A DNA stretch of 64,000 nucleotides from an uncultured Candidatus Saccharibacteria bacterium (lineage in GTDB: Bacteria > Patescibacteriota > Saccharimonadia > CAILAD01 > BJGX01), in the NCBI GenBank assembly GCA_964610335.1, contig CAZSVP010000003.1:141531-205530 (forward strand). The letters are read 5' to 3'. The notes under the pieces were generated by a model that saw nothing but the letters and a program-made list of their open reading frames with translations, did no database searches and was not told where the DNA came from. Positions 2,037-59,654 of the stretch are shown here, piece by piece (position 1 is the first letter of the stretch; every line of letters begins with the position of its first letter). A program made the translations under genes and the position numbers.

Positions 2037-2692
2037 GCAAGTATTTGGTATTCTCGCATGGCTTTGGTGTGAAGAAAGACGATCGGGGCCTACTCACCGA
2101 CATTGCCGAAAACTCCCCAAAATACGAATCAGTACTTTTTGACTACAATGATGTCGATGAGGAGCACAATGTATTGACTGTAGCACCTTTACGGCGCCAA
2201 GCTGATATGTTACTAGATGAGATAGATATAGTCAGACAATCCGACCCAGATGCTGAAATTAGTTTGGTATGCCATTCGCAGGGTTGTGTAGTAGCAAGTA
2301 TTGCCAACCCATCAGATATCAAGCAAGCAATCTTTTTGGCTCCACCTGGCAATGTTAGTGCCGAGAGTATCCAGGAATTCTTTGGCAAACGACCAGGCAC
2401 AGTGGTAGAAGACGATGGAACTATGCGAGTACCGCGCGCTGATGGTAGCACTACCCGCATACCACAACAGTTCATAGATGATATTAAATCCGTAGATGTA
2501 GCCGAGCTTTATCCGAGCTTTGCGCGCCAAACCAAGCTTACTATTGTTGTGGCCAATCAAGACGAAGTACTTAAGCCTGTTGATTTTAGCTATCTAGCAG
2601 AAGATGTAAGATTGCTATATATAGACGGTGATCATAATTTCACAGGAGATGATAGAATAGGTTTGATAAATCAACTAGAGGAACTGCTATGA
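2033..2692 (+). CDS. alpha/beta-fold hydrolase (esterase-like)
   Basis: GXSXG nucleophile elbow (CHSQGC), later Asp/His candidates; overlaps gltX stop. Confidence 0.5.
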   Translation: MSKYLVFSHGFGVKKDDRGLLTDIAENSPKYESVLFDYNDVDEEHNVLTVAPLRRQADMLLDEIDIVRQSDPDAEISLVCHSQGCVVASIANPSDIKQAIFLAPPGNVSAESIQEFFGKRPGTVVEDDGTMRVPRADGSTTRIPQQFIDDIKSVDVAELYPSFARQTKLTIVVANQDEVLKPVDFSYLAEDVRLLYIDGDHNFTGDDRIGLINQLEELL

Positions 2693-4059
2693 AGATTACT
2701 TCGACAAATCCGTCTCGTAATTATGAAGAAATTGGAAGCGTTGAGCCCTCAACTGCCGAAGATGTTCAAGCCAAGATCACACAAGCTCATAAAGCGAAAT
2801 CTAGTTGGCGCGAACTTGGTATTCATGCTAGAACAAAGTTATTACAAAAGGTTGCTTCCGAAATTGAGCAATCAAAAGAACTTCTAGCTAAACTTATCGC
2901 CCAAGAAATGGGTATGCCAATAACTAGTGCACTATCTGAAGTCGACGATGCTTTGTACTATTGGCATTCTTATCTAAAAACTGCTGAAGGATTCTTAACA
3001 CCAGAGGTTACCCTCGAAACAGAGACTGAGCTTCATCAAGTCGTTCGAGAGCCGTACGGAGTGGTTGCTGCTATTGCTCCATGGAATTTCCCTATATCAA
3101 ATTTCGTATGGACTTGTGGTCAGAATTTAGCTGCCGGCAACGTGGTTGTGTTCAAACACTCAGAAGAAACACCGCTATGCGGCAAACTTATCGAAAAGAT
3201 TGTAAATAAAGTGCTTCCGGAGGGAGTATTCTCTGAATTATATGGCGATGGCACGGTTGGTAAAATGCTAGTTGAACAAGATATTAATTTTATCTGTTTC
3301 ACTGGTAGTACTGCCACCGGAATTAAGATCAATGAATCAGCAGCGCGACGGTTTATACCAACTTCGATGGAACTCGGTGGCTCAGCACCAGGAATAGTAT
3401 TGGAAGACTGTAATGTAACTGGTATTGCTGAAACCATATATTCGAACCGCTTTTCAAACTGTGGCCAAATGTGTGATGCTCTTAAACGGCTAATTGTTCA
3501 CGAATCAAAACTTGAACAAGTCAAAAATGAATTACTCAAGATTTTGGCTACCAAGAAAGTTGGCGATGCCCAAGATCCAAAAACTGATATCGGACCACTG
3601 GTAGCAAAACGCCAGCTTGAACTATTAGAGGAACAGGTAGCAGATGCTGTTACCAAGGGTGCCAACATACTTACTGGCGGTAATAGATTGGAAAAACTTT
3701 TGGGTGCTTATTATGAACCAACCTTGATAGAAAATGTAACTCCGGACATGAGGATTTGGCAGGAAGAAGTTTTTGGCCCAGTACTACCAATTGTAACTTT
3801 TAAGGCCGTAGATGAAGCTATTGACCTGGCAAATAACACCACTTATGGACTGGGTGCATATGTGTTTACTCAAGACAAGCAAAAATTTATGGATGTTGCT
3901 AATCAGCTAGAGTCGGGTATGGTTAGCCAAAACAATCTTAGCTACGTGAATTCGTGCAATTTCTTTGGCGGTTATAAGATGTCGGGGGGCGGACGTGAAC
4001 ACGCCAAGTTTGGTTTTGAAGAAGTTACTCAAACTAAAGTTATTGTTTCAGAAAAATAA
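2689..4059 (+). CDS. NAD(P)-dependent aldehyde dehydrogenase family protein
   Basis: ALDH Glu active-site motif ELGGSAP and Cys motif FSNCGQMC; ~456 aa. Confidence 0.85.
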   Translation: MKITSTNPSRNYEEIGSVEPSTAEDVQAKITQAHKAKSSWRELGIHARTKLLQKVASEIEQSKELLAKLIAQEMGMPITSALSEVDDALYYWHSYLKTAEGFLTPEVTLETETELHQVVREPYGVVAAIAPWNFPISNFVWTCGQNLAAGNVVVFKHSEETPLCGKLIEKIVNKVLPEGVFSELYGDGTVGKMLVEQDINFICFTGSTATGIKINESAARRFIPTSMELGGSAPGIVLEDCNVTGIAETIYSNRFSNCGQMCDALKRLIVHESKLEQVKNELLKILATKKVGDAQDPKTDIGPLVAKRQLELLEEQVADAVTKGANILTGGNRLEKLLGAYYEPTLIENVTPDMRIWQEEVFGPVLPIVTFKAVDEAIDLANNTTYGLGAYVFTQDKQKFMDVANQLESGMVSQNNLSYVNSCNFFGGYKMSGGGREHAKFGFEEVTQTKVIVSEK

Positions 4060-5132: not shown

Positions 5133-7874
5133 TTAGATTAACTTAGTTTGCTGATCAGATTCTGGCTTGGGAGCATTATCGGCAATGGCACCAGCAAATT
5201 CTCGCTTGTGTGTAGCACCCATCTCAGCGGCGTTGACGGTAGATTTCTCAACTTGGGAGATTGCCAGACTACGCAGGTAGTAAGTAGTCTTGAGCCCCAT
5301 GCGCCAGGCATAGATATATAGATCGCTCAATTGTTTACCAGACACACCACTAACAAACACATTGAAGCTCTGGCTCTGATCTAGCCATTTGCCGCGATAG
5401 GCAGTGACGCGGATAAGGGCCATCGGGTCGATCTCAAACACTTCCTTGTACTTACGGCGCACATCTTCTGGTATCTCAGTAATCTTTTGGACTGAGCCGT
5501 CATGGAACTTCAACTTCTGCACCATCTCTGGACCCCACAGATTGAGTTTCTTAAGGTCAGTAACTAGGTAGGGGTTGATCACAGTAAATTCACCATTCAT
5601 GTTGGATTTCACATATAAGTTTTTGTAAATAGGCTCAATACATGGGTAACAGCCATTGATGTTGGAGATAGAGGCAGTTGGAGCTATCGCCATGGTGTTG
5701 CTATTGCGCATACCATATTTTTTCACTAGCGCACGAACAGGTTTCCAATCTAGCTTGCTAGTGCGCTTCACATCGATCTTCTCGCCGCGTTCTTTTTCAA
5801 GCATATCTAATGTATCGATGGGGAAGATGCCGCGATCCCACTTGGAGCCTTTGTAACTACTATAGGTACCTTTTTCGCGGGCAAGCTCAGCACTACCCAT
5901 GATGGCGTGGTAGCTGACAAATTCCATCGACTCGTCGGCAAAGGCTATTGCCTTGTCGCTCTCAAACTCCATGTCGAGCATATATAGAGCGTCTTGAAAG
6001 CCCATAATACCAATACCCACTGGGCGATGGCGCTGATTGGCAGTCTCATTCTCTTTGGTTGGGTAGAAGGTAATATCGATCACATTATCAAGCATGCGGA
6101 TGGCAGTCTTGACGGTATCGGCCAGTAGCTCACGATCGAGCTTGCCGCCTTTGATGTGAGTGGCAAGATTGACTGAGCCAATGTTGCAGACCGCTGTTTC
6201 CTCACGCGAGTTGTTGAGTGTGATCTCGGTACAAAGATTGGAATTGTGTACTACGCCGACATGGTCTTGCGGGCTGCGAACATTGCAAGCATCCTTAAAT
6301 GTAATCCATGGGTGGCCAGTCTCAAATAGCATGGTTAGCATCTTGCGCCACAACTGCAGCGCACTTACGCGGCGGAACTGACGAATCTTACCAGCATCGG
6401 CTAGTTTTTCGTACTCTTCATACTTTTGCTCAAACTCTTTGCCATATATATGATGAAGCTTTGGGACTTCCTCGGGGCTAAATAGTGTCCACTGCGCATT
6501 GGCCTCAACGCGTTTAATAAACAAATCTGGTACCCAGCTGGCTGTGTTCATGTCGTGAGTACGACGACGCTCGTCGCCAGTGTTTTTGCGTAGTTCTAAG
6601 AAATCTTCGAAGTCCAGATGCCAGTTTTCGAGATATACACAGGTAGCACCTATACGACGACCACTGCGGGCGATAGCTACGGTTACGTCATTGGCAATTT
6701 TGAGAAACGGCACTACACCCTGAGAAGGTATATTGATAGTCTTAATAAGCGAGCCAGTCGAGCGAATGTTGCTCCAGTCAGTACCAATGCCACCAGAGAA
6801 TTTACTCATTAGCGCATTGTCGCGATACACCTTGAAGATATGATCGAGATCGTCTTCGACAGTATTGAGATAGCACGAGCTCATCTGTGGCCATGATGTG
6901 CCGGAATTGAACAGAGTAGGTGAGCTAGGAGTATAGCGTTTGGTAGACAGGATATTGTAAAACTCTATCGCTACTGCAGTACGTTTCTTCTTGTCCTCGT
7001 TTAGCGCCATACCCATACTGACACGCATCCAAAATATCTGCGGCACTTCAAGTACTACCTTGCTCTCACGCTCAGGGCGCAGGAAGTAGTTGCTATATAG
7101 AGTTTGGAGTCCCATGTAGTCGATCATCTTGTCGCGGTCTGGCTTGATAGCATCGGCCAGCTTATCGAGCTCAAACTCAGCCATTTGCTTATGAAGCAGT
7201 TTGTTCTTGATACCGCTTTCTATGAAGTTCTTGAAGATTGTTTTGTAGGCTGTAGCGACTTCAGTAGTTTCACTGGCACCCAACACTTCCTTGTACATCT
7301 TCTTTTGCAATAGTCTTGCAGCCAAGCTATCGTAGGCCGGATCTTTTTCGATACTGCTTTTGGCAGCCAGTATCAGAGCATCGTCGAACTCATCTTCACT
7401 CATGCCATCGTAGACATTGGCCTTGGCGTATTCGGCCAGCTCTTCGATGTCGACGCCTTCTATACCATGGGCGGCCTCAACAAACGTTTTGATAATGGTA
7501 GGGTAGCCGTATTGAGCCGAGCTACCGTCGGCCATGGTTACAGATATGCCAGCATGCTCGAGCTTCTCAGCCTGGGCAGCCTCACGCATCATCTTGTGGG
7601 TGTCACGATAGATAATAAAGCTACGGGCAGTCTTGAAATAGCCACCGCGCATAAGTGCTTGTTCTACAAGGTCTTGGGTAGATTCTACGTCTGGCACATC
7701 GCCCGCAAATAAATCCTCCAGACCAGCCACCACGCCATCTACCAAGCTATCAATCTCATCGGCAGGAATCTCAGTCTCAGCCGATGCGCTAGCCTTTACT
7801 ATTGCTTGATATATACGCATGCGATCAAAGATTGCGATCTGGCCATTGCGCTTTTTTATTTGTGTAAAACTCAT
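5133..7874 (-). CDS. nrdA: ribonucleotide reductase class I large subunit with N-terminal ATP-cone
   Basis: ATP-cone (KRNGQIAIFDRMRIYQAIVKA), catalytic-site region NLCTEITL, 913 aa. Confidence 0.9.
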   Translation of the reverse strand: MSFTQIKKRNGQIAIFDRMRIYQAIVKASASAETEIPADEIDSLVDGVVAGLEDLFAGDVPDVESTQDLVEQALMRGGYFKTARSFIIYRDTHKMMREAAQAEKLEHAGISVTMADGSSAQYGYPTIIKTFVEAAHGIEGVDIEELAEYAKANVYDGMSEDEFDDALILAAKSSIEKDPAYDSLAARLLQKKMYKEVLGASETTEVATAYKTIFKNFIESGIKNKLLHKQMAEFELDKLADAIKPDRDKMIDYMGLQTLYSNYFLRPERESKVVLEVPQIFWMRVSMGMALNEDKKKRTAVAIEFYNILSTKRYTPSSPTLFNSGTSWPQMSSCYLNTVEDDLDHIFKVYRDNALMSKFSGGIGTDWSNIRSTGSLIKTINIPSQGVVPFLKIANDVTVAIARSGRRIGATCVYLENWHLDFEDFLELRKNTGDERRRTHDMNTASWVPDLFIKRVEANAQWTLFSPEEVPKLHHIYGKEFEQKYEEYEKLADAGKIRQFRRVSALQLWRKMLTMLFETGHPWITFKDACNVRSPQDHVGVVHNSNLCTEITLNNSREETAVCNIGSVNLATHIKGGKLDRELLADTVKTAIRMLDNVIDITFYPTKENETANQRHRPVGIGIMGFQDALYMLDMEFESDKAIAFADESMEFVSYHAIMGSAELAREKGTYSSYKGSKWDRGIFPIDTLDMLEKERGEKIDVKRTSKLDWKPVRALVKKYGMRNSNTMAIAPTASISNINGCYPCIEPIYKNLYVKSNMNGEFTVINPYLVTDLKKLNLWGPEMVQKLKFHDGSVQKITEIPEDVRRKYKEVFEIDPMALIRVTAYRGKWLDQSQSFNVFVSGVSGKQLSDLYIYAWRMGLKTTYYLRSLAISQVEKSTVNAAEMGATHKREFAGAIADNAPKPESDQQTKLI

Positions 7875-7913
7875 GTATCACCCTCCACCTTTAGTTTTTC
7901 GAGATCAAACAAA

Positions 7914-7929
7914 ACACTATATATAGTGC
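7914..7929 (-). promoter_or_regulatory. NrdR box 1 (perfect palindrome ACACTATATATAGTGC-like) upstream of nrdAB
   Basis: CACTATATATAGTG is a perfect inverted repeat; matches NrdR-box consensus acaCwAtATaTwGtgt. Confidence 0.7.
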
Positions 7930-7946
7930 TTTGTAGTTATACTACC

Positions 7947-7962
7947 ACCACATATAGTGCTT
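7947..7962 (-). promoter_or_regulatory. NrdR box 2 (ACACATATAGTGCT-like), about 33 bp from box 1
   Basis: Second imperfect palindrome with same core; tandem spacing of about 3 helical turns typical for NrdR operators. Confidence 0.6.
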
Positions 7963-8093
7963 GTGGTAGTACTTTGTCGTACATTCGTTTGATAATTGCT
8001 CTCACACAACTACTTACGAACATAATACGAATCTAGCCCCCTTGTTGTCAACTCTTTTACTCTCTCACGAAACAAAACTTAGTAGCATCATAG

Positions 8094-8120
8094 CCCGGCT
8101 GGGCAATAGCTACAATATGG
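8094..8120 (+). repeat. partial copy of CCCGG..GCAATAG.TAC repeat (see copies at 8334, 9176, 9434)
   Basis: CCCGGCTGGGCAATAGCTACAATATGG shares CCCGG-GCAATAG-TAC core with downstream copies. Confidence 0.4.
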
Positions 8121-8216
8121 TTTGTAAAAAATACAATGAAAAATCTGAGTTTGAAGTGATTTGTGCTACTGGTCAAAATATACGAAATATGTTAAAGTAG
8201 GCTGGCATTTTTTAGT

Positions 8217-8291
8217 GGTCCCATCGTCTAACGGTTAGGACACCAGATTCTCAATCTGGCAATCGGAGTTCGATTCTCCGTGGGATCACCA
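8217..8291 (+). tRNA. tRNA-Glu (anticodon CUC), CCA encoded
   Basis: Manual cloverleaf: acceptor GGTCCCA/TGGGATC, D-arm GTCT/GGAC, anticodon stem CCAGA/TCTGG with loop TTCTCAA (anticodon CTC), T-arm CGGAG-TTCGATT-CTCCG, discriminator A + CCA. Confidence 0.85.
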
Positions 8292-8333
8292 TGTCTTTAT
8301 ACAGAATTCTAGTCAACTTCAATAAGCTGCTGA

Positions 8334-8379
8334 GTTGGTTCGAATCCAGCCCCCGGAGCAATAGTACTTATGCTTAAAG
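8334..8379 (+). repeat. tRNA 3'-end-like fragment (T-arm GTTGG-TTCGAAT-CCAGC + acceptor-like tail) fused to repeat CCCGGAGCAATAGTACTTATGCTTAAAG; att-like copy a
   Basis: Canonical T-loop GGTTCGAATCC with pairing stem but no matching 5' acceptor/D/anticodon arms upstream; sequence repeated imperfectly at 9176 and 9434. Confidence 0.55.
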
Positions 8380-8400
8380 ACCTGAAAAGGTCCTTTTGAT

Positions 8401-9177
8401 ATGATAGTTATTATGAAGATTTTGTCACCAACTCTAAATTTTAATTCGCAGTCTGCAATAGATGAATTTAAGAAAGTTATTGGCGGGCTACCTAGTGATG
8501 TTGATGATTACATTGTTGGTGGTTCTGTTAGAAACGCTATTTTTAGAAAAATATTTGGTGAAGTACTTACTCAACGAGATTACGACCAAGTTGTTACAAA
8601 AAATTCAGATAAATATTTAGAGTATCTTAAATCTCTAGGGTTTTATCTCGGTAAACTAGACCGCCCTACTCAAAAGGTATATGCATACGACCTAATACCA
8701 AATCCACCTGCTGATAGTTATGTAGATTCATTGGTTTATGATATTCATACAATGGACAATACAACCATTGAAGAAAACCTAAGAACTAGTAGTGGTTTTA
8801 CAATCAACGGCTTTGCATTACCTATAAGAAAATTATTTGACGAAAACTGGTTTGACGAAATCATACAACTGCCAGGTGCACTAGATGATATGAAGAAAAA
8901 ACAGCTTAGGGTAAATAAAGATGGTTACAAAGAACAACCAGCGAATCTTTTTGCTGGAATTAGGTTTATGTCTAAAGGATTTTTACCACCTAGCAAAGAA
9001 GATGTTGAGTTATTACTAAACGAAATGCCAAACATCACTCCAGAAAGATTTGAAAAGGGCGTGAAGAAAGTCTGGGATTATGTTGGTGGCGAGCAAAAAG
9101 CTCGAGAGTATGTAAAACAGTTGAACATTGATATTGATATTTTTAATCGTGAAGAAATTCTGAGCAAACTAGGCTAG
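8401..9177 (+). CDS. truncated tRNA-nucleotidyltransferase/poly(A)-polymerase-family nucleotidyltransferase (head+neck domains only, 258 aa)
   Basis: YIVGGSVRN..DYD (Pol-beta NTase GG.VRD..D.D motif of CCA enzymes), FTINGFA (cf. RRDFTMNAIA), AGIRFMSKGF (cf. RAVRFVSELGF); ORF is ~35% GC versus ~47% flanks. Confidence 0.65.
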   Translation: MIVIMKILSPTLNFNSQSAIDEFKKVIGGLPSDVDDYIVGGSVRNAIFRKIFGEVLTQRDYDQVVTKNSDKYLEYLKSLGFYLGKLDRPTQKVYAYDLIPNPPADSYVDSLVYDIHTMDNTTIEENLRTSSGFTINGFALPIRKLFDENWFDEIIQLPGALDDMKKKQLRVNKDGYKEQPANLFAGIRFMSKGFLPPSKEDVELLLNEMPNITPERFEKGVKKVWDYVGGEQKAREYVKQLNIDIDIFNREEILSKLG

Positions 9178-9224
9178 TTCTAACTTCAGTTACTACCCGG
9201 AGCCATAGTACTTATGCTTAAAAG
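9176..9224 (+). repeat. att-like repeat copy b (degenerate T-arm-like AGTTCTAACTTCAG + CCCGGAGCCATAGTACTTATGCTTAAAAG)
   Basis: 29-nt near-identity to copy a (27/29), preceded by degenerated T-loop-like segment. Confidence 0.55.
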
Positions 9225-9230
9225 GCCCAC

Positions 9231-9434
9231 GTGTTTCATTTTGTTATAATAACGAATATGAAAACAATACGATATATTGCTGTTGTTTGTAATGCTATTT
9301 TTGTAGCTTGGCTATTATTTAATGCAATTGATGAGGGTTTTCGTGCAGTAAATCGTGTAGAACTAGTCTCGATGATTAGTCTAATAGCGCTACTGTTGCT
9401 CAACATTATTCTTCTACTACATCGGCGTGCCTAA
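9231..9434 (+). CDS. small hydrophobic protein (2 predicted TM helices), AT-rich
   Basis: 67-aa ORF, ~33% GC, two hydrophobic stretches; lies inside the repeat-bounded islet. Confidence 0.35.
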   Translation: MFHFVIITNMKTIRYIAVVCNAIFVAWLLFNAIDEGFRAVNRVELVSMISLIALLLLNIILLLHRRA

Positions 9435-9481
9435 GTTCAAATCTCCATTACAACCCGAAGCCAAAGTGCTAGTATCAAAAG
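9434..9481 (+). repeat. att-like repeat copy c (AGTTCAAATCTCC...CCCGAAGCCAAAGTGCTAGTATCAAAAG), most degenerate
   Basis: Aligns with copy b over about 45 nt with about 70% identity including T-loop-like AGTTCAAATC and CCCG.AGCCA.AGT.CT core. Confidence 0.45.
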
Positions 9482-9539
9482 AAGCCGTCGGAGCTCCTTT
9501 TTGATATACTTTAGTTAACAAATTAAACAAGGAGTAATT

Positions 9540-9830
9540 ATGCCCAAATCAAAATCTAACCCGGATATAGAAATCAACGCCAAAGTAAACAGTACCGAAT
9601 GGAAAGAGTGGGCAAAACAATGCAGCCAGGACAAAGCCAACAAATCGTCACATAGTGCAGCTGGTGCTTCTGGAGGATTATACTTTCTAGGATTTGTGGG
9701 GTCGCTGATTTACTGGATGCAAGCTGCAGGTAACTTTGGGGCTGTCATAACCGGAATACTTAAATCACTAGTGTGGCCCACCTATATAGTTTATAAGTTG
9801 CTCGAAGGTTTTTACGGCGTTGTAAGGTAG
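9540..9830 (+). CDS. small membrane protein, hypothetical
   Basis: Strong RBS AAGGAG 6 nt upstream of ATG; C-terminal hydrophobic segments; near-native GC. Confidence 0.5.
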   Translation: MPKSKSNPDIEINAKVNSTEWKEWAKQCSQDKANKSSHSAAGASGGLYFLGFVGSLIYWMQAAGNFGAVITGILKSLVWPTYIVYKLLEGFYGVVR

Positions 9831-9851
9831 TAGCACAAGAACAATCTACCT

Positions 9852-10712
9852 GTGAAACTTCCAACAAATAGCCATAGTTCAGACCATCCTCAAACCAACC
9901 GCACTTCGCACACCCAGCTACCCGCTGGCGATGAGATAATGCATATCTCCAATGCCGAAGAAAAGCGCGAACTGTTAGCAGAACGACAAAATGTGCATTT
10001 TGTAGACTTCAGTTCTATCAAGGTCATGTATGAAAAGTTTGGTATGGATACCGCAATATTTGATACGCCAGATCTTACGCCTCAATTTATCTTGGATACC
10101 GGCAACAGTCTAACCAATCAGCTAGTAACTACCTTGCTTCAAAAAAAGCTATCAGAGCAAGAAGTACAACTGTTGAAGGATTGCTACAGCTATTTGTCAG
10201 AGCAAGATGAGCCCCAAGCATCAGACTACATCTATGTATTTGGTGCCAAAACACCACTGCGGATTGAAAAAGCCATAGAGCTATACCAGCAAGGTCTAGC
10301 TCCGAAAATAATTGTAAGTGGCCGCGGACCATTCTATGGCACCGAACAAACTACCACTGAAGCTGGCATTTACTCGGCGATTGCTCAAGCTGCAGGTGTG
10401 CCACGGAGCGCCATAATAGTGGAAGATGCGTCGATTACTATACCCGACAATGTGCGTCGAACGCTAAATATGATGGATGCTAACAGTATGCCTTATAGCT
10501 CATTTATACTCGTTAACTCACCATATACTCAGCGACGCGGCTGGTGTGTGTGGAAGAAGCATACGCCTGAAGCAGTCAAACTATATCGCGCTAACTGTGC
10601 AGCTGGAGTTAAGTTTGATAGTGATAACTGGTATCAAAACGAAGATGGATTGAAAGTGGTGCTTGGCGAGTTTGTAAAATTGCGCAATACTATAGCGTTC
10701 AACGATGCTTAA
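9852..10712 (+). CDS. DUF218/YdcF-like (SanA/ElyC family) protein
   Basis: YIYVFGAKTPLRIEKAIELYQQGLAPKIIVSGRG and ...IIVEDASITIPDN match the DUF218 G-x-R-x-A...SGG...E..S.nT pattern; true start may be the internal Met (MHISNAEE). Confidence 0.55.
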   Translation: MKLPTNSHSSDHPQTNRTSHTQLPAGDEIMHISNAEEKRELLAERQNVHFVDFSSIKVMYEKFGMDTAIFDTPDLTPQFILDTGNSLTNQLVTTLLQKKLSEQEVQLLKDCYSYLSEQDEPQASDYIYVFGAKTPLRIEKAIELYQQGLAPKIIVSGRGPFYGTEQTTTEAGIYSAIAQAAGVPRSAIIVEDASITIPDNVRRTLNMMDANSMPYSSFILVNSPYTQRRGWCVWKKHTPEAVKLYRANCAAGVKFDSDNWYQNEDGLKVVLGEFVKLRNTIAFNDA

Positions 10713-11773
10713 AGATTGCCTTTGAAGAATTCAACAATGTGGCTCACTACTACAACTTGATTCTGTGCAAACAAATGATCATTACCTGGAGTAGTAAAGA
10801 AGTCTACTGGTTTGCTAGCTTGACGCAAGGCATCGGTGAGCCGTTGCGAGAAGTTTGGTGGTACCACTCCGTCGTTGGTACTGGTATATACCAGTGATAC
10901 CCCTGTAATGTACTTAACATAATTAATAGCCGATGCACTATCCCAGAAATTTGGGTTTGATTTAGGGTCGCCATACTTGTTGAGTAATTCTTCGCGCTTA
11001 GATTGTACTAGCGAGGGTAAGTCAGACGGTATTGGGCTATTGGGCCAATTGTATAGAATGTCTGAAATCGAACCTACCACACCCGATAGGTAAGCCGTCG
11101 CCTTAATGGCAGGCGAGCTTACTGCAGCTCGCAAACTTACATGTCCACCTAGGCTATGACCAATCATGCCAATACGATTTGGGTTGACCAAGCTGTACTG
11201 TTGCAAACTAGCGACTAGGTTGAGAACATCATAGGCATAGACCGGCGAAAAATGACCACCCTCTGGTGTGCCTTGGCTACTAGCATGACCTCGATAGTCA
11301 GGCTTTATTACCACAAAACCAGCTCGCGCCAACTGCGCCATCAGATTTTGGTAGGTAGGGGAATTGGTTGTTTGATACTCGCTGGGGTTGACGTAGCCAT
11401 GATTGAGTACGATAACTGGCCAACCGCCTATCGGTGCGTTACCGGGCGGCGTGAACATCTGAGCATATTGTTTGAGACCATCAGACGTGTAGGATACTAC
11501 TTGGTTATTATATCCTTCGCTACTACCTAGATTTTGCTCCACCAGGATTTGGCTTGCTTGATAACCACGCGATCTGATAGCTTCAATCTGTATAGGGTCG
11601 AGTTCGGCTTGAACGGGGACAGCTATTTGGGTAGTGGGTAACTCTATAGCTGGTCGACGCGCTGATCTACTAGAGACGAAATACAGTATCAAGCCTGCCA
11701 ACAACACAAAACTCACACTTATCCCTACTAACAATGCAACCTGCCTACTATTGTGCGTTTCTGACATATACAT
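10709..11773 (-). CDS. membrane-anchored alpha/beta hydrolase (S9/dienelactone-hydrolase-like)
   Basis: N-terminal TM helix, GXSXG motif GHSLGG, C-terminal Asp/His candidates. Confidence 0.6.
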   Translation of the reverse strand: MYMSETHNSRQVALLVGISVSFVLLAGLILYFVSSRSARRPAIELPTTQIAVPVQAELDPIQIEAIRSRGYQASQILVEQNLGSSEGYNNQVVSYTSDGLKQYAQMFTPPGNAPIGGWPVIVLNHGYVNPSEYQTTNSPTYQNLMAQLARAGFVVIKPDYRGHASSQGTPEGGHFSPVYAYDVLNLVASLQQYSLVNPNRIGMIGHSLGGHVSLRAAVSSPAIKATAYLSGVVGSISDILYNWPNSPIPSDLPSLVQSKREELLNKYGDPKSNPNFWDSASAINYVKYITGVSLVYTSTNDGVVPPNFSQRLTDALRQASKPVDFFTTPGNDHLFAQNQVVVVSHIVEFFKGNL

Positions 11774-12341: not shown

Positions 12342-13124
12342 GTGAGGTATAATGTAGTTATGAAATCTATTTGGGATGGTTCGATCAATTTTGGGCTCGT
12401 AAACATACCTGTTCGTATGTACAGTGGCAGCACCAAACACGAGGGCATTGACCTTGCGATGTTACGCCGCTCAGACAAGTCACCAATACGCTATGAGCGA
12501 GTGGCCGAAGCAGATGGTAAGGAAGTAGCATTTGAGGATATTGCCAAAGGCTATGAATACGAAAAAGGCCAGTTTGTTTTGTTGAGTGACGAAGATTTTG
12601 AAAACGCCAACCAGCACAAGGCTCGCAACATCACTATCAAACAGTTTGTTAGCGAGGACGAGATAGACAGTCGCTACTACGACAAACCATACTACCTTGA
12701 GCCTGATGAGCACGCAGCCGATACTTACGCGCTGTTGCGCGATGCACTAGCACAAACCGACAAGATTGCTTTGGCACGCTATGTGTTACACGGTCATGAG
12801 AATATTGCCGCCATTAAACCAGTAGGTAAGCTACTGGTACTAAATCAAATGCGGTTTCCTGCTGATTTGCGTGAACCTAGCGAGCTTGATATACCAAATA
12901 CCAAAGCCGACAAGCCCGAGCTTGCGATGGCTGTGAAACTAATCAATCAGCTAACCAAGCCGTTCATCGCCGAGGATTGGCACGATACCTACACTGAGGA
13001 ATTGCGAGAAACAATTGATCGCAAGGTAAAGAATAAGCCCTCCAAAGCCAAAGGCAAACCACACAGCAAGCCGACTAGTGTCAAGGATTTAGCCCAAGCC
13101 CTAAAACAAAGCTTAAATAAGTAG
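12342..13124 (+). CDS. ku: Ku DNA end-binding protein (NHEJ)
   Basis: N-terminal MKSIWDGSINFGLVNIPVRMYSGS Ku signature; Lys-rich C-terminal tail; alternative start ATG at 12360. Confidence 0.9.
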   Translation: MRYNVVMKSIWDGSINFGLVNIPVRMYSGSTKHEGIDLAMLRRSDKSPIRYERVAEADGKEVAFEDIAKGYEYEKGQFVLLSDEDFENANQHKARNITIKQFVSEDEIDSRYYDKPYYLEPDEHAADTYALLRDALAQTDKIALARYVLHGHENIAAIKPVGKLLVLNQMRFPADLREPSELDIPNTKADKPELAMAVKLINQLTKPFIAEDWHDTYTEELRETIDRKVKNKPSKAKGKPHSKPTSVKDLAQALKQSLNK

Positions 13125-13131
13125 GTAGTAA

Positions 13132-15528
13132 GTGGGACTACGCGACTACTTACGCAAACGAGTATTTAGCAAAACCCCTGAGCCTCGCGGTAAGCACAAC
13201 AGGGGCAATAGCTCAGAGCTGCGGTTTGTTGTACAAAAGCATGCTGCTAGCCACTTACATTATGACTTTCGGCTGGAGCTCGATGGTGTACTTAAAAGCT
13301 GGGCCGTGCCCAAAGGAATTAGTCTCAATCCAAGCGAACACCACCTAGCGATTCAAACCGAAGATCACCCATTAGAGTACATCTCTTTTAAGGGCAAAAT
13401 ACCGGAAGGTAACTATGGTGCCGGTAAAGTAGAGATATACGATCATGGTACATATGAACCTCGCGCCTCGGTAGATGATAATGCCAAGGAAATCCGATCT
13501 GCCCTGCACAATGGTCACCTGACATTTATCCTTCATGGCGATAAGCTGAAGGGTGAGTTTGCACTTATTCGCAATGAACACTTTGCAAAGAATGGTTGGC
13601 TACTGATAAAGAAAGGTGATCAGTATGCCAAGCCACCAGGACCATACTACCTGCCCGACAAAGCCGATATGGATCCCGAAAAAGCCCTTTCGTCCTCGCC
13701 ACGGGTCAAGATGCCATCGCATATCAAACCAATGCTTGCAACACTGGTAGACAAGCCATTTGACGATGCTGGCTGGCTATACGAAGTCAAATGGGATGGC
13801 TATCGTGCACTCGCTTACAAACACAGCGGTAAGGTATCGCTTGAGTCACGCAACCAAAACGACTTTACTAGTTCATATCAAGAGATTACCGCAGCTGTTG
13901 CTAAGCTTAGACATGATGTCGTCTTGGATGGTGAAATGGTTGCAGTTGACAGCAATGGCCACCCGCATTTTGAATGGTTACAGAACTGGCGCACAGCACC
14001 GCAAGGCAAGTTGGTTTATTACGTGTTTGACTTACTATGGTGTGATGGCAAAGATTTACGCAAGCTGCCACTTAGAACTCGCCGATCAATATTGAGTAAC
14101 ATAATCCCCAAGGATTCTATTATCCGGCTTAGTGATGGGGTAGAGAACAAAGGCCTCAAATACTTCGAGCGAGCGGCCAAACTTGGCTTGGAGGGTATAG
14201 TTGCTAAAAGGTTAGATAGCACCTACCAAGAGAACGTTCGTGGTAAAAATTGGTTGAAGATCAAAACCCATATGCGACAAGAAGTTGTGATAGGTGGCTA
14301 CACAGAGCCACGCGGCAGTCGCTCTAGCCTTGGTTCATTATTGGTAGGCGTATATGTAGACAGTAAGTTTGTGTACTGTGGCCATGTCGGAACAGGTATG
14401 GACGAGTCAACACTCCAAGAATTGTATGCCAAATTGAGTAAGATTGAATCAAAATCCATGCCTTTTGATAATGAGCCAAAGTCAAACGAGACAGTACACT
14501 ATATCAAGCCAAAATACGTTTGCGAAGTAAAATTTGCCGAGTGGACTAGCAATGGTACTATGCGCCAGCCAGTTTACTTGGGTCTTAGACCCGACAAGAA
14601 GCCTCAACAAGTAGTTCGCGAGATTCCTACCAAAGCCAAGCAAGAATTTGAGCTTACACACCTCGATAAGGTGTTTTGGCCAGAGGGTAAGTTTACAAAA
14701 GGCGACCTACTAAAATACTACGAAAGTATTGCTGAGACACTGCTACCGTATCTAAACAACCGACCCCAGTCACTTCTGCGTCAACCAGATGGGTACAGAG
14801 GCCAAGCATTTTTCCAAAAAGATATATCGAAATTCGCGCCAGACTGGGCCAAAACTATATCTATTCATTCAGACTCATCAAACAAGGAGGTGGAGTATTT
14901 GATATGCAATGACCTGAAAACTTTGCAGTATATGGTACAGCTAGGCTGTATTGAGATCAATCCGTGGAACTCGCGCACCAAGCACTTGACCAAACCAGAC
15001 TGGGCAGTAGTGGATCTTGATCCTGAAGACATCAGTTTTGAAAAAGTCATTGAAGTCGCCAAGGTCGTACACAAGGTTTGTGAGGAGCTAAAAATTCCAT
15101 GCTACCCAAAAACTTCCGGCAAGACAGGTATCCACATATTTATTCCATTAGACGCAAAGTATAGTTACGATCAAGCCCGCCAGTTTGTTCAACTACTAGT
15201 AACAATTATTCACGAACGCACAAGCAAGATTACCAGTCTAGAGCGTAGTCCAGCGAAGCGCAAACACAAGATATACCTCGACTATTTGCAAAACAGCGAA
15301 GGCCAAACCCTTGCGTCCGCCTACTGTGTACGTCCAACTAAAGCCGCGAGTGTTTCAACACCACTACACTGGGATGAAGTGAGAGTTGGTCTTGACCCCA
15401 CAAAGTTTACTATCAAAACTACAGCAGCTCGTGTTAAGCGTGTAGGTGATCTCTGGAAACCTGTTCTGGGTGATGGAGTTGATTTAAAACAAGTATTGAG
15501 TAATCTAACAGGCATAACCAAGAAGTGA
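13132..15528 (+). CDS. ligD: ATP-dependent DNA ligase LigD (phosphoesterase-ligase-polymerase domains)
   Basis: PE domain (RFVVQKHAASHLHYDFRLE), ligase motif I EVKWDGYRA, C-terminal primase-polymerase domain (KTSGKTGIHIFIPL). Confidence 0.9.
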   Translation: MGLRDYLRKRVFSKTPEPRGKHNRGNSSELRFVVQKHAASHLHYDFRLELDGVLKSWAVPKGISLNPSEHHLAIQTEDHPLEYISFKGKIPEGNYGAGKVEIYDHGTYEPRASVDDNAKEIRSALHNGHLTFILHGDKLKGEFALIRNEHFAKNGWLLIKKGDQYAKPPGPYYLPDKADMDPEKALSSSPRVKMPSHIKPMLATLVDKPFDDAGWLYEVKWDGYRALAYKHSGKVSLESRNQNDFTSSYQEITAAVAKLRHDVVLDGEMVAVDSNGHPHFEWLQNWRTAPQGKLVYYVFDLLWCDGKDLRKLPLRTRRSILSNIIPKDSIIRLSDGVENKGLKYFERAAKLGLEGIVAKRLDSTYQENVRGKNWLKIKTHMRQEVVIGGYTEPRGSRSSLGSLLVGVYVDSKFVYCGHVGTGMDESTLQELYAKLSKIESKSMPFDNEPKSNETVHYIKPKYVCEVKFAEWTSNGTMRQPVYLGLRPDKKPQQVVREIPTKAKQEFELTHLDKVFWPEGKFTKGDLLKYYESIAETLLPYLNNRPQSLLRQPDGYRGQAFFQKDISKFAPDWAKTISIHSDSSNKEVEYLICNDLKTLQYMVQLGCIEINPWNSRTKHLTKPDWAVVDLDPEDISFEKVIEVAKVVHKVCEELKIPCYPKTSGKTGIHIFIPLDAKYSYDQARQFVQLLVTIIHERTSKITSLERSPAKRKHKIYLDYLQNSEGQTLASAYCVRPTKAASVSTPLHWDEVRVGLDPTKFTIKTTAARVKRVGDLWKPVLGDGVDLKQVLSNLTGITKK

Positions 15529-56359: not shown

Positions 56360-57100
56360 TTATTGTCTAGCTCGCAAATACTGATCCCAGTGCTGATACA
56401 ATTTGCCAGTTGCAAATAGATCTTGAGCATTGTACTTGGCAATTTCGAGATAGCGACCTTCACGATATGCAGGATCGACTTGACTACCATCAATGCCAGC
56501 GACTTTTGGACTAGTAATTCCAAATGCTCGGCACCAACGATGTAGGCTACCTTTGTACATAGCTCCACCAAAAAATGTCAGTTGGTCGAACAAATCTATG
56601 TGTTGGACCGATCGAACTCCAGAAGAATTGTAGCGATTGCCTACCAGATCACGGGTCGGTCGGATACCAAGAATAGCACTACGTATCATCATGTATGGCA
56701 CGTCGGCTCGGCGCCCAAAGAAGCTTATAAACTCGTCGGCAGTTTCGGCCAAGGCCCAAAATTTTGTCAACATCTCGGCCTCGGTCATGCTGACATATTT
56801 AACACCTTCTTCTTCGAGCTCTTCAGTATCCTTACCCTCAGTATCATAGTAAACAGCGCCCTGCTCGCTCTCTATGTCGTATAAGCCGATAGCAATTATT
56901 TTACCTGTCAATGGGCTAAATACTAGATTGCGTTTAAGCTCTTTGAGAGCTTGCTCATAGCGCTCTGGTTCTATTTCGGGGTCGGGCAATTTTTTGGTGA
57001 GATCTTTTTTGGTAGCTTCATCAAAGTCATCAAAGTTCTCCCCCACCATCTCTATATCAAATACTAATCGTTTTTTATGCATTGACACATTATAACACAA
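56360..57100 (-). CDS. predicted DEDD/PolB-like 3'-5' exonuclease (RNase H fold)
   Basis: VFDIE (Exo I), later YNAQD (Exo III YxxxD); start may be internal Met (MHKKRL, 57082). Confidence 0.45.
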   Translation of the reverse strand: MCYNVSMHKKRLVFDIEMVGENFDDFDEATKKDLTKKLPDPEIEPERYEQALKELKRNLVFSPLTGKIIAIGLYDIESEQGAVYYDTEGKDTEELEEEGVKYVSMTEAEMLTKFWALAETADEFISFFGRRADVPYMMIRSAILGIRPTRDLVGNRYNSSGVRSVQHIDLFDQLTFFGGAMYKGSLHRWCRAFGITSPKVAGIDGSQVDPAYREGRYLEIAKYNAQDLFATGKLYQHWDQYLRARQ

Positions 57101-57198
57101 TCTGATCTGGTTCTTGATTGAATAATACTTCTACTTATTGTATAATTGCCAACCAACATTGCGTTCGTATTTCTACTGGCCGACCATAAGGAGTCGCA

Positions 57199-57915
57199 AT
57201 GAGCAACACCACAACTGACAGCTTTGGAGAGTTGGTAGTGCGACGAGCCGATCAGCTGCGCCAGCGCGGCGATGCCGGCGGTGCTTGCCGGGATTTCAAC
57301 AAGGCCTACAACTTGCTGCGTAGCGAAGGCAAGGCCTGCGACCCCGTCATGCGTGACTGCTTGCATATGTGGGGAGTTGCGCTCTGCAGCAAAGGCAACC
57401 CGGCCGAGGCATTGAGCAAGTTCCGCCAAGCAATTCAGTTGTCCATCGACATCGGTGACCAGCCAAGTCGCATGGCCATGGGCAACATCATGCGTGATGA
57501 AGCCAAGGCTCAGATGCTGCTCGGCGAGCTCGATCGTGCCGAAGAGTGTCTCATCAGCTCACAACAGATTCTCAAGCCAGAGACCGAATGGGATCAGACT
57601 GCGCTACAAGGATTGGCCAACACCATCGGATTCCAAGGCCGTCTCGAAGTGTACCGTCACAATCTCGGTCTAGCTCTGCAATATCTACGCGAAGCTGATC
57701 GCCTGCTAGGCGCGATCGGAGCCGATCAACCCCGACTGTACAACCTGCTGGTGTTGTCTCGCACAGCTCACATGGCAGGTATGGCCGAAGCTGCTGGACA
57801 TGCTCGTGCAGCTTGGCCACTGGCCAAAAGGTATGGCGGCCGTAGCCATCGCATCCGAGCAATGCTGCTGATGCTCCCGATCGCCTGGCGGCTCGAAGCT
57901 CGCATGAGCTCGTAG
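57199..57915 (+). CDS. TPR-like hypothetical protein, high GC
   Basis: Helical repeat composition; ~60% GC; first gene of high-GC island. Confidence 0.45.
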   Translation: MSNTTTDSFGELVVRRADQLRQRGDAGGACRDFNKAYNLLRSEGKACDPVMRDCLHMWGVALCSKGNPAEALSKFRQAIQLSIDIGDQPSRMAMGNIMRDEAKAQMLLGELDRAEECLISSQQILKPETEWDQTALQGLANTIGFQGRLEVYRHNLGLALQYLREADRLLGAIGADQPRLYNLLVLSRTAHMAGMAEAAGHARAAWPLAKRYGGRSHRIRAMLLMLPIAWRLEARMSS

Positions 57916-58065
57916 CACCCAAGAGTGCTTTTACCCGTCCCCAACGAACGTCCCTGACATTTGTTGGGGACGTTCGTGTTTTTGGAGATGATTTTAATTC
58001 AATAATTGCTTGCCGGAGTGCGGAAGTATGATCACTCACACCTCCGCACCCCGAAGTTCACCCCC

Positions 58066-59496
58066 TCAGAGGATCTCGCCAGGGCTGTAGCGAGCTGCCT
58101 CTGGGTACTTGGCCATCACCGGCTCGATCGAGCGCACGAAGTTGCCCACCTGCGCTACCGCTACACCGGTCATCTCGATCGGATTGGCCAATGCTTCGCG
58201 CAGATCGGCCAGCTCGACGCACTGCATGTTGGGATCAGCCGCTATCCGTTCCAGCAGATCGTTGGGCAGACCCCCAACTTCTCGCTGTGCCATCTTGAGT
58301 GCCAAGGCATGCTCCTTGATGACCTCGTGGGCCTTCTCACGACCCATGCCGGCACGAACCGCGGCCATCAACAGCTTGGTAGTGCCCAGGTACGGCAGTT
58401 GCTCGCGCAACTCGGTCTGAATCATGGCCGGAAAGAATCCGAACTCATCGAGCACCGTGAGCCAGGTCTGGTAGAGCCCATCGAGGGCGAAGAACGAGTC
58501 CGGAAGCACCACGCGGCGAATCACGCTGCAGCTCACGTCGCCCTCGAACCAGGTGTCGCCAGCCAGCTCGTTGGCCATGGTGACATGACCGCGCAGCGTG
58601 CACTGCAGCGCACGGATGCGCTCACAGCTACGAGAGTTTTCCTTGTGCGGCATGGCGCTGCTACCGGTCTGGCCAGGTTTGAAACCCTCGCTAGCCAAGC
58701 CCAGACCCGACATCAACCGAATCATCTGAGCAAAGTTGCCGGCTGGCGCTGCCAGTAGCAATAGCAGCTCGACCACCTCGGAGTCGTAGCTACGTGGATA
58801 GACCTGCCCCACCGAGTTCATCGACTCGGCAAAGCCGAGATGCTCGGCAATCCGCCGTTCCAGCTCCACCACGTCATCTGGGTTGCTCAGCAGATCCAAC
58901 TGATCCTGCTGAGTACCAACCGGACCCTTGATACCACGCAACTGGTAGTGCTCGATCACATACTCGAGCTTGTCCAGGAAGTGCAGCAGCTCCTCGCCGA
59001 TGGTGGCGATTCGCTTGCCCACCGTGGTGGGCTGAGCTGGCACGAAGTGACTGCGTCCGGCGATCACCACACCAACGTAGTTGGTGGCTGACTCACCCAA
59101 GCGAGCCAGCGCTGCCACCACACGGATGCGGATCAGCTTGAGACTCCGCAGCACCTGCATCTGCTCGACGTTGTCGGTCAGGTCACGGCTGGTCATACCC
59201 TTGTGCAGGTGCTCATGGCCAGCCAGCGCGCAGAACTCCTCGATCCGCGCCTTCACGTCGTGGCGGGTGCGGCGCTCGCGAGTGGCGATGGACTCGAGAT
59301 CCACCTGATCGATGACGGCTTCGTAGGCCTCGATCACGCCATCGGGCACATCCACACCCAAATTCTTCTGGGCGCGCAGTACGGCCAGCCAGAGCTCGCG
59401 CTCCATGATCACCTTCTGCCGTTCACCCCAAACCTCACGCACCTCCTCGGAGGCGTAGCGCATGGCCAGGACATTGCTGATTTCAGTGATGGCCAC
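58066..59496 (-). CDS. purB: adenylosuccinate lyase
   Basis: Fumarate-lyase signature GSSAMPHKEN; 476 aa; high GC. Confidence 0.85.
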   Translation of the reverse strand: MAITEISNVLAMRYASEEVREVWGERQKVIMERELWLAVLRAQKNLGVDVPDGVIEAYEAVIDQVDLESIATRERRTRHDVKARIEEFCALAGHEHLHKGMTSRDLTDNVEQMQVLRSLKLIRIRVVAALARLGESATNYVGVVIAGRSHFVPAQPTTVGKRIATIGEELLHFLDKLEYVIEHYQLRGIKGPVGTQQDQLDLLSNPDDVVELERRIAEHLGFAESMNSVGQVYPRSYDSEVVELLLLLAAPAGNFAQMIRLMSGLGLASEGFKPGQTGSSAMPHKENSRSCERIRALQCTLRGHVTMANELAGDTWFEGDVSCSVIRRVVLPDSFFALDGLYQTWLTVLDEFGFFPAMIQTELREQLPYLGTTKLLMAAVRAGMGREKAHEVIKEHALALKMAQREVGGLPNDLLERIAADPNMQCVELADLREALANPIEMTGVAVAQVGNFVRSIEPVMAKYPEAARYSPGEIL

Positions 59497-59654
59497 TGTG
59501 GCCTCCTCTTTGTCAATGCCTACAATAAGTAGACGGTACGAACAACAAAAGCGGCATCATGCCGCCTTGTACATTAGTATATGAGTATTGCTAGTCCAGA
59601 TCAAATTTGGTAAACTCACCGAGACCTCGACAACTGAATAGAAAGGCAGTCGTC

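Follow-up and report, generated by a model that had tools for sequence, protein, structure and literature searches.

A short array of tRNA-Asn-derived sites and probable exchangeable gene cassettes in an uncultured Candidatus Saccharibacteria bacterium

Analysis of a 64,000-nt stretch of contig CAZSVP010000003.1 from an uncultured Candidatus Saccharibacteria bacterium (assembly GCA_964610335.1; hereafter the window) revealed a compact run of direct repeats and three small genes (genes 1 to 3) at positions 8334–9830, beside tRNA-Glu(CUC) and nrdA. We read this run as probably a short cassette array of the tRNA-anchored kind, in which a site-specific recombinase supplied in trans would exchange the cassettes. 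Each repeat, here called a site, is a copy of the last ~25 bases of tRNA-Asn followed by a ~20-base trailer. Sites of this architecture are also conserved in six or more related metagenomic genomes, as many as 13 of them in one array. A previous sequence-only reading of the window had interpreted the repeats as the footprint of repeated integrations at a tRNA 3′ end. The comparisons described here, made with short-read metagenome contigs labelled L001–L060, agree with that reading in that the repeats are tRNA-3′-end-derived, att-like sites marking serially inserted units without an integrase, and depart from it in that the repeats do not appear to be simply decaying scars.

The only tRNA called in the window by ARAGORN and Rfam is tRNA-Glu(CUC) (62.3 bits). 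Starting 42 nt after it lies the T-arm fragment lacking a 5′ half that had been noticed from the sequence (8334–8358), comprising T-stem GTTGG (8334–8338), T-loop TTCGAAT (8339–8345) and T-stem CCAGC (8346–8350), with one G-U pair in the stem. The tail of the fragment consists of an acceptor 3′ strand, CCCCGGA (8351–8357), a G at 8358 and CAA in place of CCA, and leads into TAGTACTTATGCTTAAAG. No second tRNA, tmRNA or other Rfam family was detected at the fragment by ARAGORN or by a permissive Rfam search of positions 7900–10000 (E ≤ 10), so the description of the fragment as an incomplete tRNA end was not refuted.

A 28-nt motif at 8352–8379 occurs again at 9196–9223 with two mismatches, against a chance expectation of 0.00 matches; the recurrence is therefore as first reported, with a corrected count of 26/28 rather than 27/29. 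Searches with nhmmer used a first profile from 8 sites and a second, limited to the core, from 27 sites. The first profile matched three real copies in the window, C1 (8334–8412), C2 and C3 (Table 1), with E = 3e-15, 2e-20 and 3e-14, respectively, and the core profile returned the same three matches and no others (E = 2e-13 for C2 and 2e-7 for C3). Both profiles identified the C3 core (9433–9479) as homologous to C1 and C2, in line with the earlier proposal of a more decayed third copy, and the three copies survived recounting. Core identities of 38/48 columns for C1/C2, 37/51 for C2/C3 and 31/50 for C1/C3 indicate that the copies decay with distance. In contrast, the partial copy that had been proposed at 8094 gave no profile match, including in a search restricted to 8040–8216, and was dropped. 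A further candidate picked by eye near 9860 also lacked an nhmmer match, even in a search restricted to the 9851–9885 stretch. Alignment of the three regions extended the repeat unit to ~80 nt, through a hairpin to TTTTG(A/T)TAT. The DNA between the copies has a GC content of 34.3% and 35.9% compared to 45.5% for the whole window, which confirms the AT-rich character ascribed to it.

All sites are organised alike, from the upstream stop codon through a T-loop-like box, a stretch ending GGAGCCA and the box (A/T)AGTACTTATGCTTAAA to a terminator hairpin and a predicted extended −10 promoter. The core spans ~50 nt, or 80–100 nt with the expression signals. Each site can be divided into a left arm, which is a variably degenerate tRNA-Asn(GUU) 3′ end running from the T-loop to GGAGCCA, and a right arm, which begins with the trailer box (A/T)AGTACTTATGCTTAAA or an alternative allele, GGAATTATTTTCG, and continues through the terminator hairpin and predicted extended −10. 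The unit in the window likewise passes GGAGCCA and the AGTACTTATGC box into the hairpin and TTTTG(A/T)TAT. Across 19 sites from several genomes, two boxes, AGTTCTAAC.TCC and AAGTACTTATGCTTAAA, are at least 90% conserved, with a variable stretch of ~14 nt ending GGAGCC between them. Because RNAalifold predicts 0 pairs across the 19 aligned cores, the core is a linear sequence motif, unlike a folded attC or a tRNA-like RNA. Hairpin structure is confined to a variable element with a T-run downstream of the core, for which a terminator-like match was called at 8379–8392. The extended −10 sequence TGnTAtnaT precedes the ATG codons of genes 1 and 2 (at 8413 and 9258) by 6–7 nt, as it does in many L059 cassettes; in C1, the predicted element TGATATGAT ends 7 nt ahead of the gene 1 ATG. 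This placement predicts leaderless transcripts, and the promoters and terminators are presumably functional.

Left arms are alike within one genome and different between genomes, and all sites in an array share the strand of the tRNA, even where cassette genes are reversed. The possibility, allowed for in the sequence-only reading, that the repeat is a scattered element like repetitive extragenic palindromic (REP) sequences was not supported, and nor was one of the bacterial interspersed mosaic element (BIME) type: no sites were found outside arrays in the 64-kb window plus ~540 kb of loci (603 kb in total), and the core is neither palindromic nor structured.

The source of the repeat was apparent from the closest homologue of gene 1 (91% identical), which in L021 lies directly behind an intact tRNA-Asn(GUU). 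There, the T-arm, acceptor strand and CCA of the tRNA are followed by TAGTACTTATGCTTAAAAG, a hairpin and TTTTTTGATATGAT, the same layout as in C1. Nucleotide homology between the window and L021 begins within the T-arm of the L021 tRNA-Asn and ends with CGGAGCCAT behind gene 1, where L021 has the degenerate left arm of C2, AGTTCTAACTTCAGTTACTACaCGGAGCCA, and then unrelated DNA. Furthermore, the tRNA part of C1 matches the 3′ end of a phage tRNA-Asn at 24/25 positions, and the 3′ end of the neighbouring tRNA-Glu is unlike the repeat. These matches point clearly to tRNA-Asn(GUU) as the progenitor, answering the search for a matching tRNA that the sequence-only reading had called for, and remove the adjacent tRNA-Glu from that role. 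An intact tRNA-Asn stands at one end of the array in L021, L042 and L059, and only its 3′ 28 nt are present in the window. Since the first site of the window keeps the T-arm without the 5′ half of the tRNA, the array there appears to be orphaned from its anchor. The 42-nt spacer was considered as a decayed tRNA-Asn 5′ half and rejected, being too short and, by eye, without similarity.

Much larger arrays were found in other genomes. A metagenome scan with GGAGCMAWAGTACTTATRCTTAA returned three contigs (L041, L042 and L043). L043 contains at least 13 co-directional sites within 10 kb, separating units of one or two genes, some of them reversed; in both L041 and L042, sites follow an intact tRNA-Asn. 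The 3′ end of the tRNA-Asn of L042 recurs as an 18-nt exact copy 0.8 kb downstream, so that both there and in the window (C2 and C3) the distal end of an insert is marked by a direct repeat of the tRNA 3′ end. Extension of L041 yielded L059 and L060, contigs from different sources that are 99.99% identical, in which a gene of 437 codons and a divergent tRNA-Asn are followed by a 9.3-kb run of at least 12 sites, all in the orientation of the tRNA, and then by OmdA. L021 presents the same frame, with a 395-residue homologue of the 437-residue L059 protein (27.5% identity, E = 7e-9), tRNA-Asn, gene 1, one site and an OmdA 67% identical to that of L059; a single chromosomal locus can therefore hold one cassette or a dozen, depending on the genome. 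Cassettes of one or two genes with a site apiece form co-directional arrays in L043 (at least 13 sites), L059 (at least 12) and the window (3). A layout analogous to that at tRNA-Asn, built on tRNA-fMet 3′ ends, surrounds gene 1 homologues in L031 and L033. L043 also carries a second repeat family of 55 nt (2582–2636 and 6595–6649; 91% identical), ending GGTTCTAGACCGCTCTGCTGAGCCAAAG, with a tRNA-3′-end-like arm in the same array region.

Close relatives were retrieved with the DUF218 gene to the right of the array. L044, whose DUF218 is 98% identical, matches the window at 100% over tRNA-Glu and the 42-nt spacer and at 95% over the stretch that begins at C2 and extends past gene 2, C3 and gene 3 into DUF218; the interval from C1 to C2, occupied by gene 1 in the window, contains instead a gene encoding 396 residues on the opposite strand, which the window lacks. 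L045 (88%) reads site, 269-residue gene, site, gene 3 and DUF218, with the 269-residue gene in the place of gene 2. In L023 and L025, gene 1 (85%) follows a degenerate site and is succeeded by a site, a gene for 232 residues and a third site. Presence/absence polymorphism bounded by the repeats is therefore seen between the window and L044 and L045, as well as between L021 and L059, and on these comparisons the sites bound exchangeable cassettes. The closest NrdA relative (89% identical), from an uncultured Candidatus Saccharibacteria metagenome-assembled genome (L001), is on a contig that stops short of the locus. As a separate observation, L023 (1643 bp, present in 5 samples) has the same 24 nt, CTTATACTTAAGACTCTCTAGGTC, inside a site at positions 1–24 and 1620–1643; a circular molecule of two cassettes, a tandem duplication and an artefact of the assembly graph are all possible explanations.

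The associations between arms indicate where cassettes join. In L059, near-identical left arms, TTCTAACATCCATGACCACCCCGAGCCA, are joined directly after GAGCCA to either of two unrelated right arms, TAGTACTTATGCTTAAA or GGAATTATTTTCG, the latter of which also follows the tRNA in L042. In the window, L021 and L023 alike, the left arm downstream of gene 1 is retained whatever comes next, and this arm is 31/32 identical between the window and L021 compared to 84% for the gene itself. Conversely, the right arm upstream of gene 2 is ~97% identical between the window and L044, and the left arm there is ~80% identical, which is family-level similarity only. On these associations, a cassette consists of right arm, gene or genes and left arm, with the exchange point at the tRNA CCA end. 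A crossover within the T-loop-like box was ruled out, as left arms stay with the upstream gene.

We propose that arrays of this kind would start at an intact tRNA-Asn and grow downstream, as in the relatives, through the insertion, loss and swapping of cassettes (right arm, one or two genes, left arm) by recombination with its junction directly after the tRNA CCA end. Sites distant from the anchor would be older and more decayed, and the array of the window would be an orphan next to tRNA-Glu and nrdA. Exchange would be catalysed by a dedicated site-specific recombinase encoded elsewhere, most likely a tyrosine recombinase, and cassettes would pass through a circular intermediate. A broader proposal, which we advance tentatively and would not yet favour, is that some Saccharibacteria have independently evolved a gene-capture platform analogous to integrons, with a tRNA-Asn anchor (and a tRNA-fMet parallel in other lineages), linear sites derived from the tRNA 3′ end and trailer in place of folded attC sites, cassettes with a terminator and leaderless promoter of their own, and a trans-acting recombinase that may belong to an unrecognised family.

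Several observations weigh against exchange by such a recombinase. Pfam searches detected no recombinase among the ~55 window open reading frames tested, which gave housekeeping genes only, and no recombinase domain in the cassettes, in the gene tables of L021, L043, L044 and L059 or in array-adjacent genes; the sequence-only reading had likewise seen no integrase in the inserted units. The P0152 family (9 cluster representatives; 395–437 residues; 8648–9835 in L021 and 10001–11314 in L059), a conserved divergent neighbour of tRNA-Asn in the position that intI occupies in an integron, was considered as a candidate recombinase but had no match in Pfam, NCBIfam or PHROG and no significant match in the PDB (best E = 0.025, to TFIIB), and its single-sequence model was unusable (predicted local distance difference test [pLDDT] 35). 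Neither a circular junction nor an empty site was found in the loci compared. In addition, misassembly at repeats is possible, all comparison loci being short-read metagenome contigs. Finally, the window and L044 disagree at 6/28 positions of the tRNA-like C1 arm although the 112 nt upstream are identical; in this exchange the arm apparently moved together with the cassette, contrary to the outcome expected of a single crossover after CCA. Viral contigs had no match to the trailer-box motif and no matching attP. The tRNA-Asn 3′ end matched only phage tRNA genes in these contigs, and one match to the left-arm box, inside an unrelated phage gene, was dismissed as chance.

The behaviour of the C1 arm is the main argument for a contribution of homologous recombination, since an arm that moves with its cassette suits variable crossover points better than a fixed one; the C1 arms of the window and L044 resemble different functional tRNA-Asn alleles, of the GCTGG/CCAGC and GCCGG/CCGGC types. 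According to this alternative, no dedicated recombinase is involved, and the junction modules serve as homology anchors of 50–100 nt at which RecA double crossovers after natural transformation shuffle the cassettes. The window encodes DprA and RecO, no integrase was found, and the homogeneity of sites within a genome is the pattern expected from gene conversion. Homologous recombination is thus a serious rival, which we nevertheless consider less likely than a dedicated recombinase: separate pairings of left and right arms are all joined at one nucleotide position, immediately behind GAGCCA; the sites are strictly co-directional; and derivation from a tRNA 3′ end in arrays that start at an intact tRNA is a hallmark of integrase att sites. 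Moreover, it accounts for exchange between arrays and not for how new genes gain sites.

The remaining alternatives leave cassette exchange aside. One is that islands with their own integrases inserted at a tRNA a few times long ago and left the repeats as inert scars, which have decayed since the integrases were deleted; this would fit the drop in identity with distance from the first site, the failure to find an integrase and the pseudogene character of the tRNA part of the first site (CAA for CCA and a G-U pair within the T-stem). We regard this as improbable because even the degenerate left arm is conserved (the AGTTCTAAC.TCC and AAGTACTTATGCTTAAA boxes described above), cassettes are mostly one or two genes and far below the size expected of decayed islands, and strains 95–100% identical in the flanks differ by whole cassettes. 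A role at the RNA level is more improbable still, to the point that we give it very little weight. The sites would then act in transcripts as tRNA-like signals of the 3′ untranslated region or of processing, with GCCA at the end, and enzymes of tRNA processing, possibly including the gene 1 product, would cut or tail them; sites do begin at or overlap the upstream stop codon and end GGAGCCA, and gene 1 is a tRNA nucleotidyltransferase homologue found beside tRNA-Asn, tRNA-Ser or tRNA-fMet ends in several lineages. However, the 19 cores lack an RNAalifold consensus structure, there is no 5′ acceptor strand and no Rfam tRNA-like match, site orientation is fixed where adjacent genes are reversed (L044 and L043), and gene 1 is missing from most arrays.

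Recombinase-mediated exchange of cassettes, the reading we prefer, has partial precedents in known systems, the nearest in behaviour being tandem integration at tRNA or tmRNA genes. Tycheposons of Prochlorococcus integrate in tandem at tRNA genes with partial tRNA copies between them, newer units pushing older ones away from the tRNA (bioRxiv 10.1101/2020.12.28.424599), and the ssrA islands of Dehalococcoides integrate in tandem at the tmRNA gene with partial copies between units (PMC3146451). As in those systems, the Saccharibacteria arrays have a tRNA gene as anchor, units split by direct repeats of the tRNA 3′ end and a content that varies between strains. In contrast, each tycheposon or ssrA island spans kilobases and encodes a tyrosine or serine recombinase of its own, whereas the units described here mostly contain one or two genes and no recombinase was found in them; no integrase was present within the element among the window reading frames tested or in the L043 and L059 arrays. 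The Saccharibacteria repeat also adds a conserved trailer box and a predicted terminator and promoter, its degenerate arm is conserved, and a dozen or more units accumulate.

Cis-mobilizable elements (CIMEs) are flanked by att sites, lack recombination genes and are moved by the integrase of a related element; they are decay products of integrative and conjugative or integrative and mobilizable elements (ICEs or IMEs) with a known cognate ICE, as in the work on ICESt1. The arrays resemble CIMEs in comprising integrase-less DNA bounded by att sites that accumulates in tandem at one attachment site, and differ from them in that no helper element was seen in the 64 kb of this genome that were analysed and the units look like designed single-gene cassettes. 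Site-specific accretion and CIME-type elements have been reviewed (PMC5704250).

The array architecture also parallels that of sedentary chromosomal integrons and of clusters of attC sites lacking integron integrases (CALINs), which also form long co-directional arrays of small, mostly unassigned genes, each followed by a recombination site, with presence/absence of cassettes between strains and orphan arrays that lack an integrase. The repeats of Vibrio integrons (VCRs) are homogeneous within a genome, as are the sites of the Saccharibacteria arrays. Unlike integrons, however, the arrays had no IntI with an adjacent attI and Pc promoter and no integrase beside any array start; the sites are tRNA-derived, without the imperfect attC palindrome (R″-L″/L′-R′) or fold; and cassettes appear to bring their own promoter and terminator instead of relying on a common Pc. 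In integrative mobile elements exploiting Xer (IMEX) and pdif modules, too, a housekeeping recombinase moves small integrase-less modules. Their 28-bp sites have the 11-6-11 layout of dif, with a XerC arm, a 6-bp centre and a XerD arm, and are recombined by XerC/D; the dif site and xer genes of the genome studied here lie outside the window. A likeness of the trailer box TTATGCTTAAA to the XerD arm of dif, TTATGTTAAAT, is treated as a lead only. Here the repeats are direct and not alternating inverted, and the anchor is a tRNA and not the replication terminus.

Saccharibacteria and other members of the candidate phyla radiation have tiny genomes with few recognisable mobile elements, and the exchange of accessory genes among them is poorly understood. 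Strain-level variation could arise through a compact array in which single-gene cassettes accumulate and are swapped, and such a layout would represent a second origin of cassette arrays, in which an integron-like architecture arose from a tRNA att site. The site profile could serve as a marker for the flexible gene pool in metagenome-assembled genomes, and the site itself could become an integration target in Saccharibacteria, which are hard to manipulate. In the searchable part of the full-text literature, no description of such arrays in Saccharibacteria or Patescibacteria was found.

Table 1. Positions of the sites, genes and left flank of the array, numbered from the first letter of the window
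Feature	Coordinates	Strand	Description
tRNA-Glu(CUC)	8217..8291	+	Intact; left flank of the array, not the repeat source; 100% identical in L044 together with the 42-nt spacer
C1 left arm	8334..8361	+	3′ part of tRNA-Asn(GUU), T-arm to acceptor and discriminator; CCA changed to CAA; 5′ half missing
C1 right arm	8362..8412	+	Box TAGTACTTATGCTTAAAG at 8362–8379; hairpin 8379–8392 with T-run; predicted extended −10 TGATATGAT at 8397–8405
Gene 1	8413..9177	+	254-residue truncated class-II tRNA nucleotidyltransferase-like protein, head and neck domains only
Site C2	9175..9257	+	Stop codon, T-loop-like box AGTTCTAACTTCAG, GGAGCCA, box TAGTACTTATGCTTAAAA, predicted extended −10 TGTTATAAT at 9242–9250
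Gene 2	9258..9434	+	58-residue hydrophobic protein; 100% protein identity in L044; absent from L045
Site C3	9433..9515	+	Most diverged copy in the window; predicted extended −10 TGATATACT at 9502–9510; kept upstream of gene 3 in L044 and L045
Gene 3	9540..9830	+	96-residue membrane-like protein; last recognisable cassette before the conserved DUF218 gene; 98% in L044, 91% in L045
Possible fourth, distal remnant	9851..9885	+	GTGAAACTTCCAACAAATAGCCATAGTTCAGACC; by-eye likeness to a left arm plus AGCCATAGT; kept in L044 and L045; no nhmmer match

With gene 3, which follows C3, the array contains one small gene beyond the two counted in the sequence-only reading. The cargo across arrays is accessory-like and includes HAD hydrolase, GNAT, 2′-5′ RNA ligase, heliorhodopsin and Vgb-lyase-like proteins and many small proteins without an assigned family, numerous small membrane proteins among the cargo; that of L043 comprises a HAD hydrolase, DUF4386, a Vgb-lyase-like protein, heliorhodopsin and small unassigned proteins.

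The AlphaFold2 model of the gene 1 product (pLDDT 94.5) had A-adding and CCA-adding enzymes as top Foldseek matches (E = 1e-10; TM score about 0.65 over 250 residues), and the protein matched PHROG 2244, tRNA nucleotidyltransferase, with E = 5e-9. The family is rare, with 31 cluster representatives, and the gene is absent from L044, L045, L059 and L043. Homologues lie behind tRNA-Ser(GGA) in L027 and behind tRNA-fMet 3′ ends in L031 and L033, where a degenerate copy of the tRNA-fMet 3′ end, weaker in L033, is found downstream; more distant homologues have no tRNA nearby. We read gene 1 as cargo that often rides tRNA-targeting cassettes, with a possible functional link to tRNA ends. A role as the mobility enzyme is unlikely given its nucleotidyltransferase fold, its absence from most arrays and the occurrence of distant homologues in contexts without a tRNA.

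Features to the right of the array were also noted. An alpha/beta hydrolase gene by the window DUF218 (10709–11773, minus strand) has a 52% identical homologue that is a reversed cassette in the L059 array (2475–3509), and the array of the window may once have reached further right than its recognisable sites. The non-homologous end joining pair of Ku and full-length LigD is encoded at 12342–15528, ~2.5 kb to the right of the array, and is kept in L044 and L045. Further away, positions 57000–61000 have a GC content of ~60% compared to about 45% elsewhere and contain an adenylosuccinate-lyase-like gene (58066–59496, minus strand) and a gene for PurD, phosphoribosylglycinamide synthetase (59607–61025, plus strand); these purine-synthesis genes look like acquisitions from a high-GC donor, which would be unusual for Saccharibacteria. 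To the left, two palindromic boxes 31 nt apart, ACACTATATATAGTG and CACCACATATAGTGCTT (7909–7962), lie just upstream of the nrdA start and resemble NrdR boxes.

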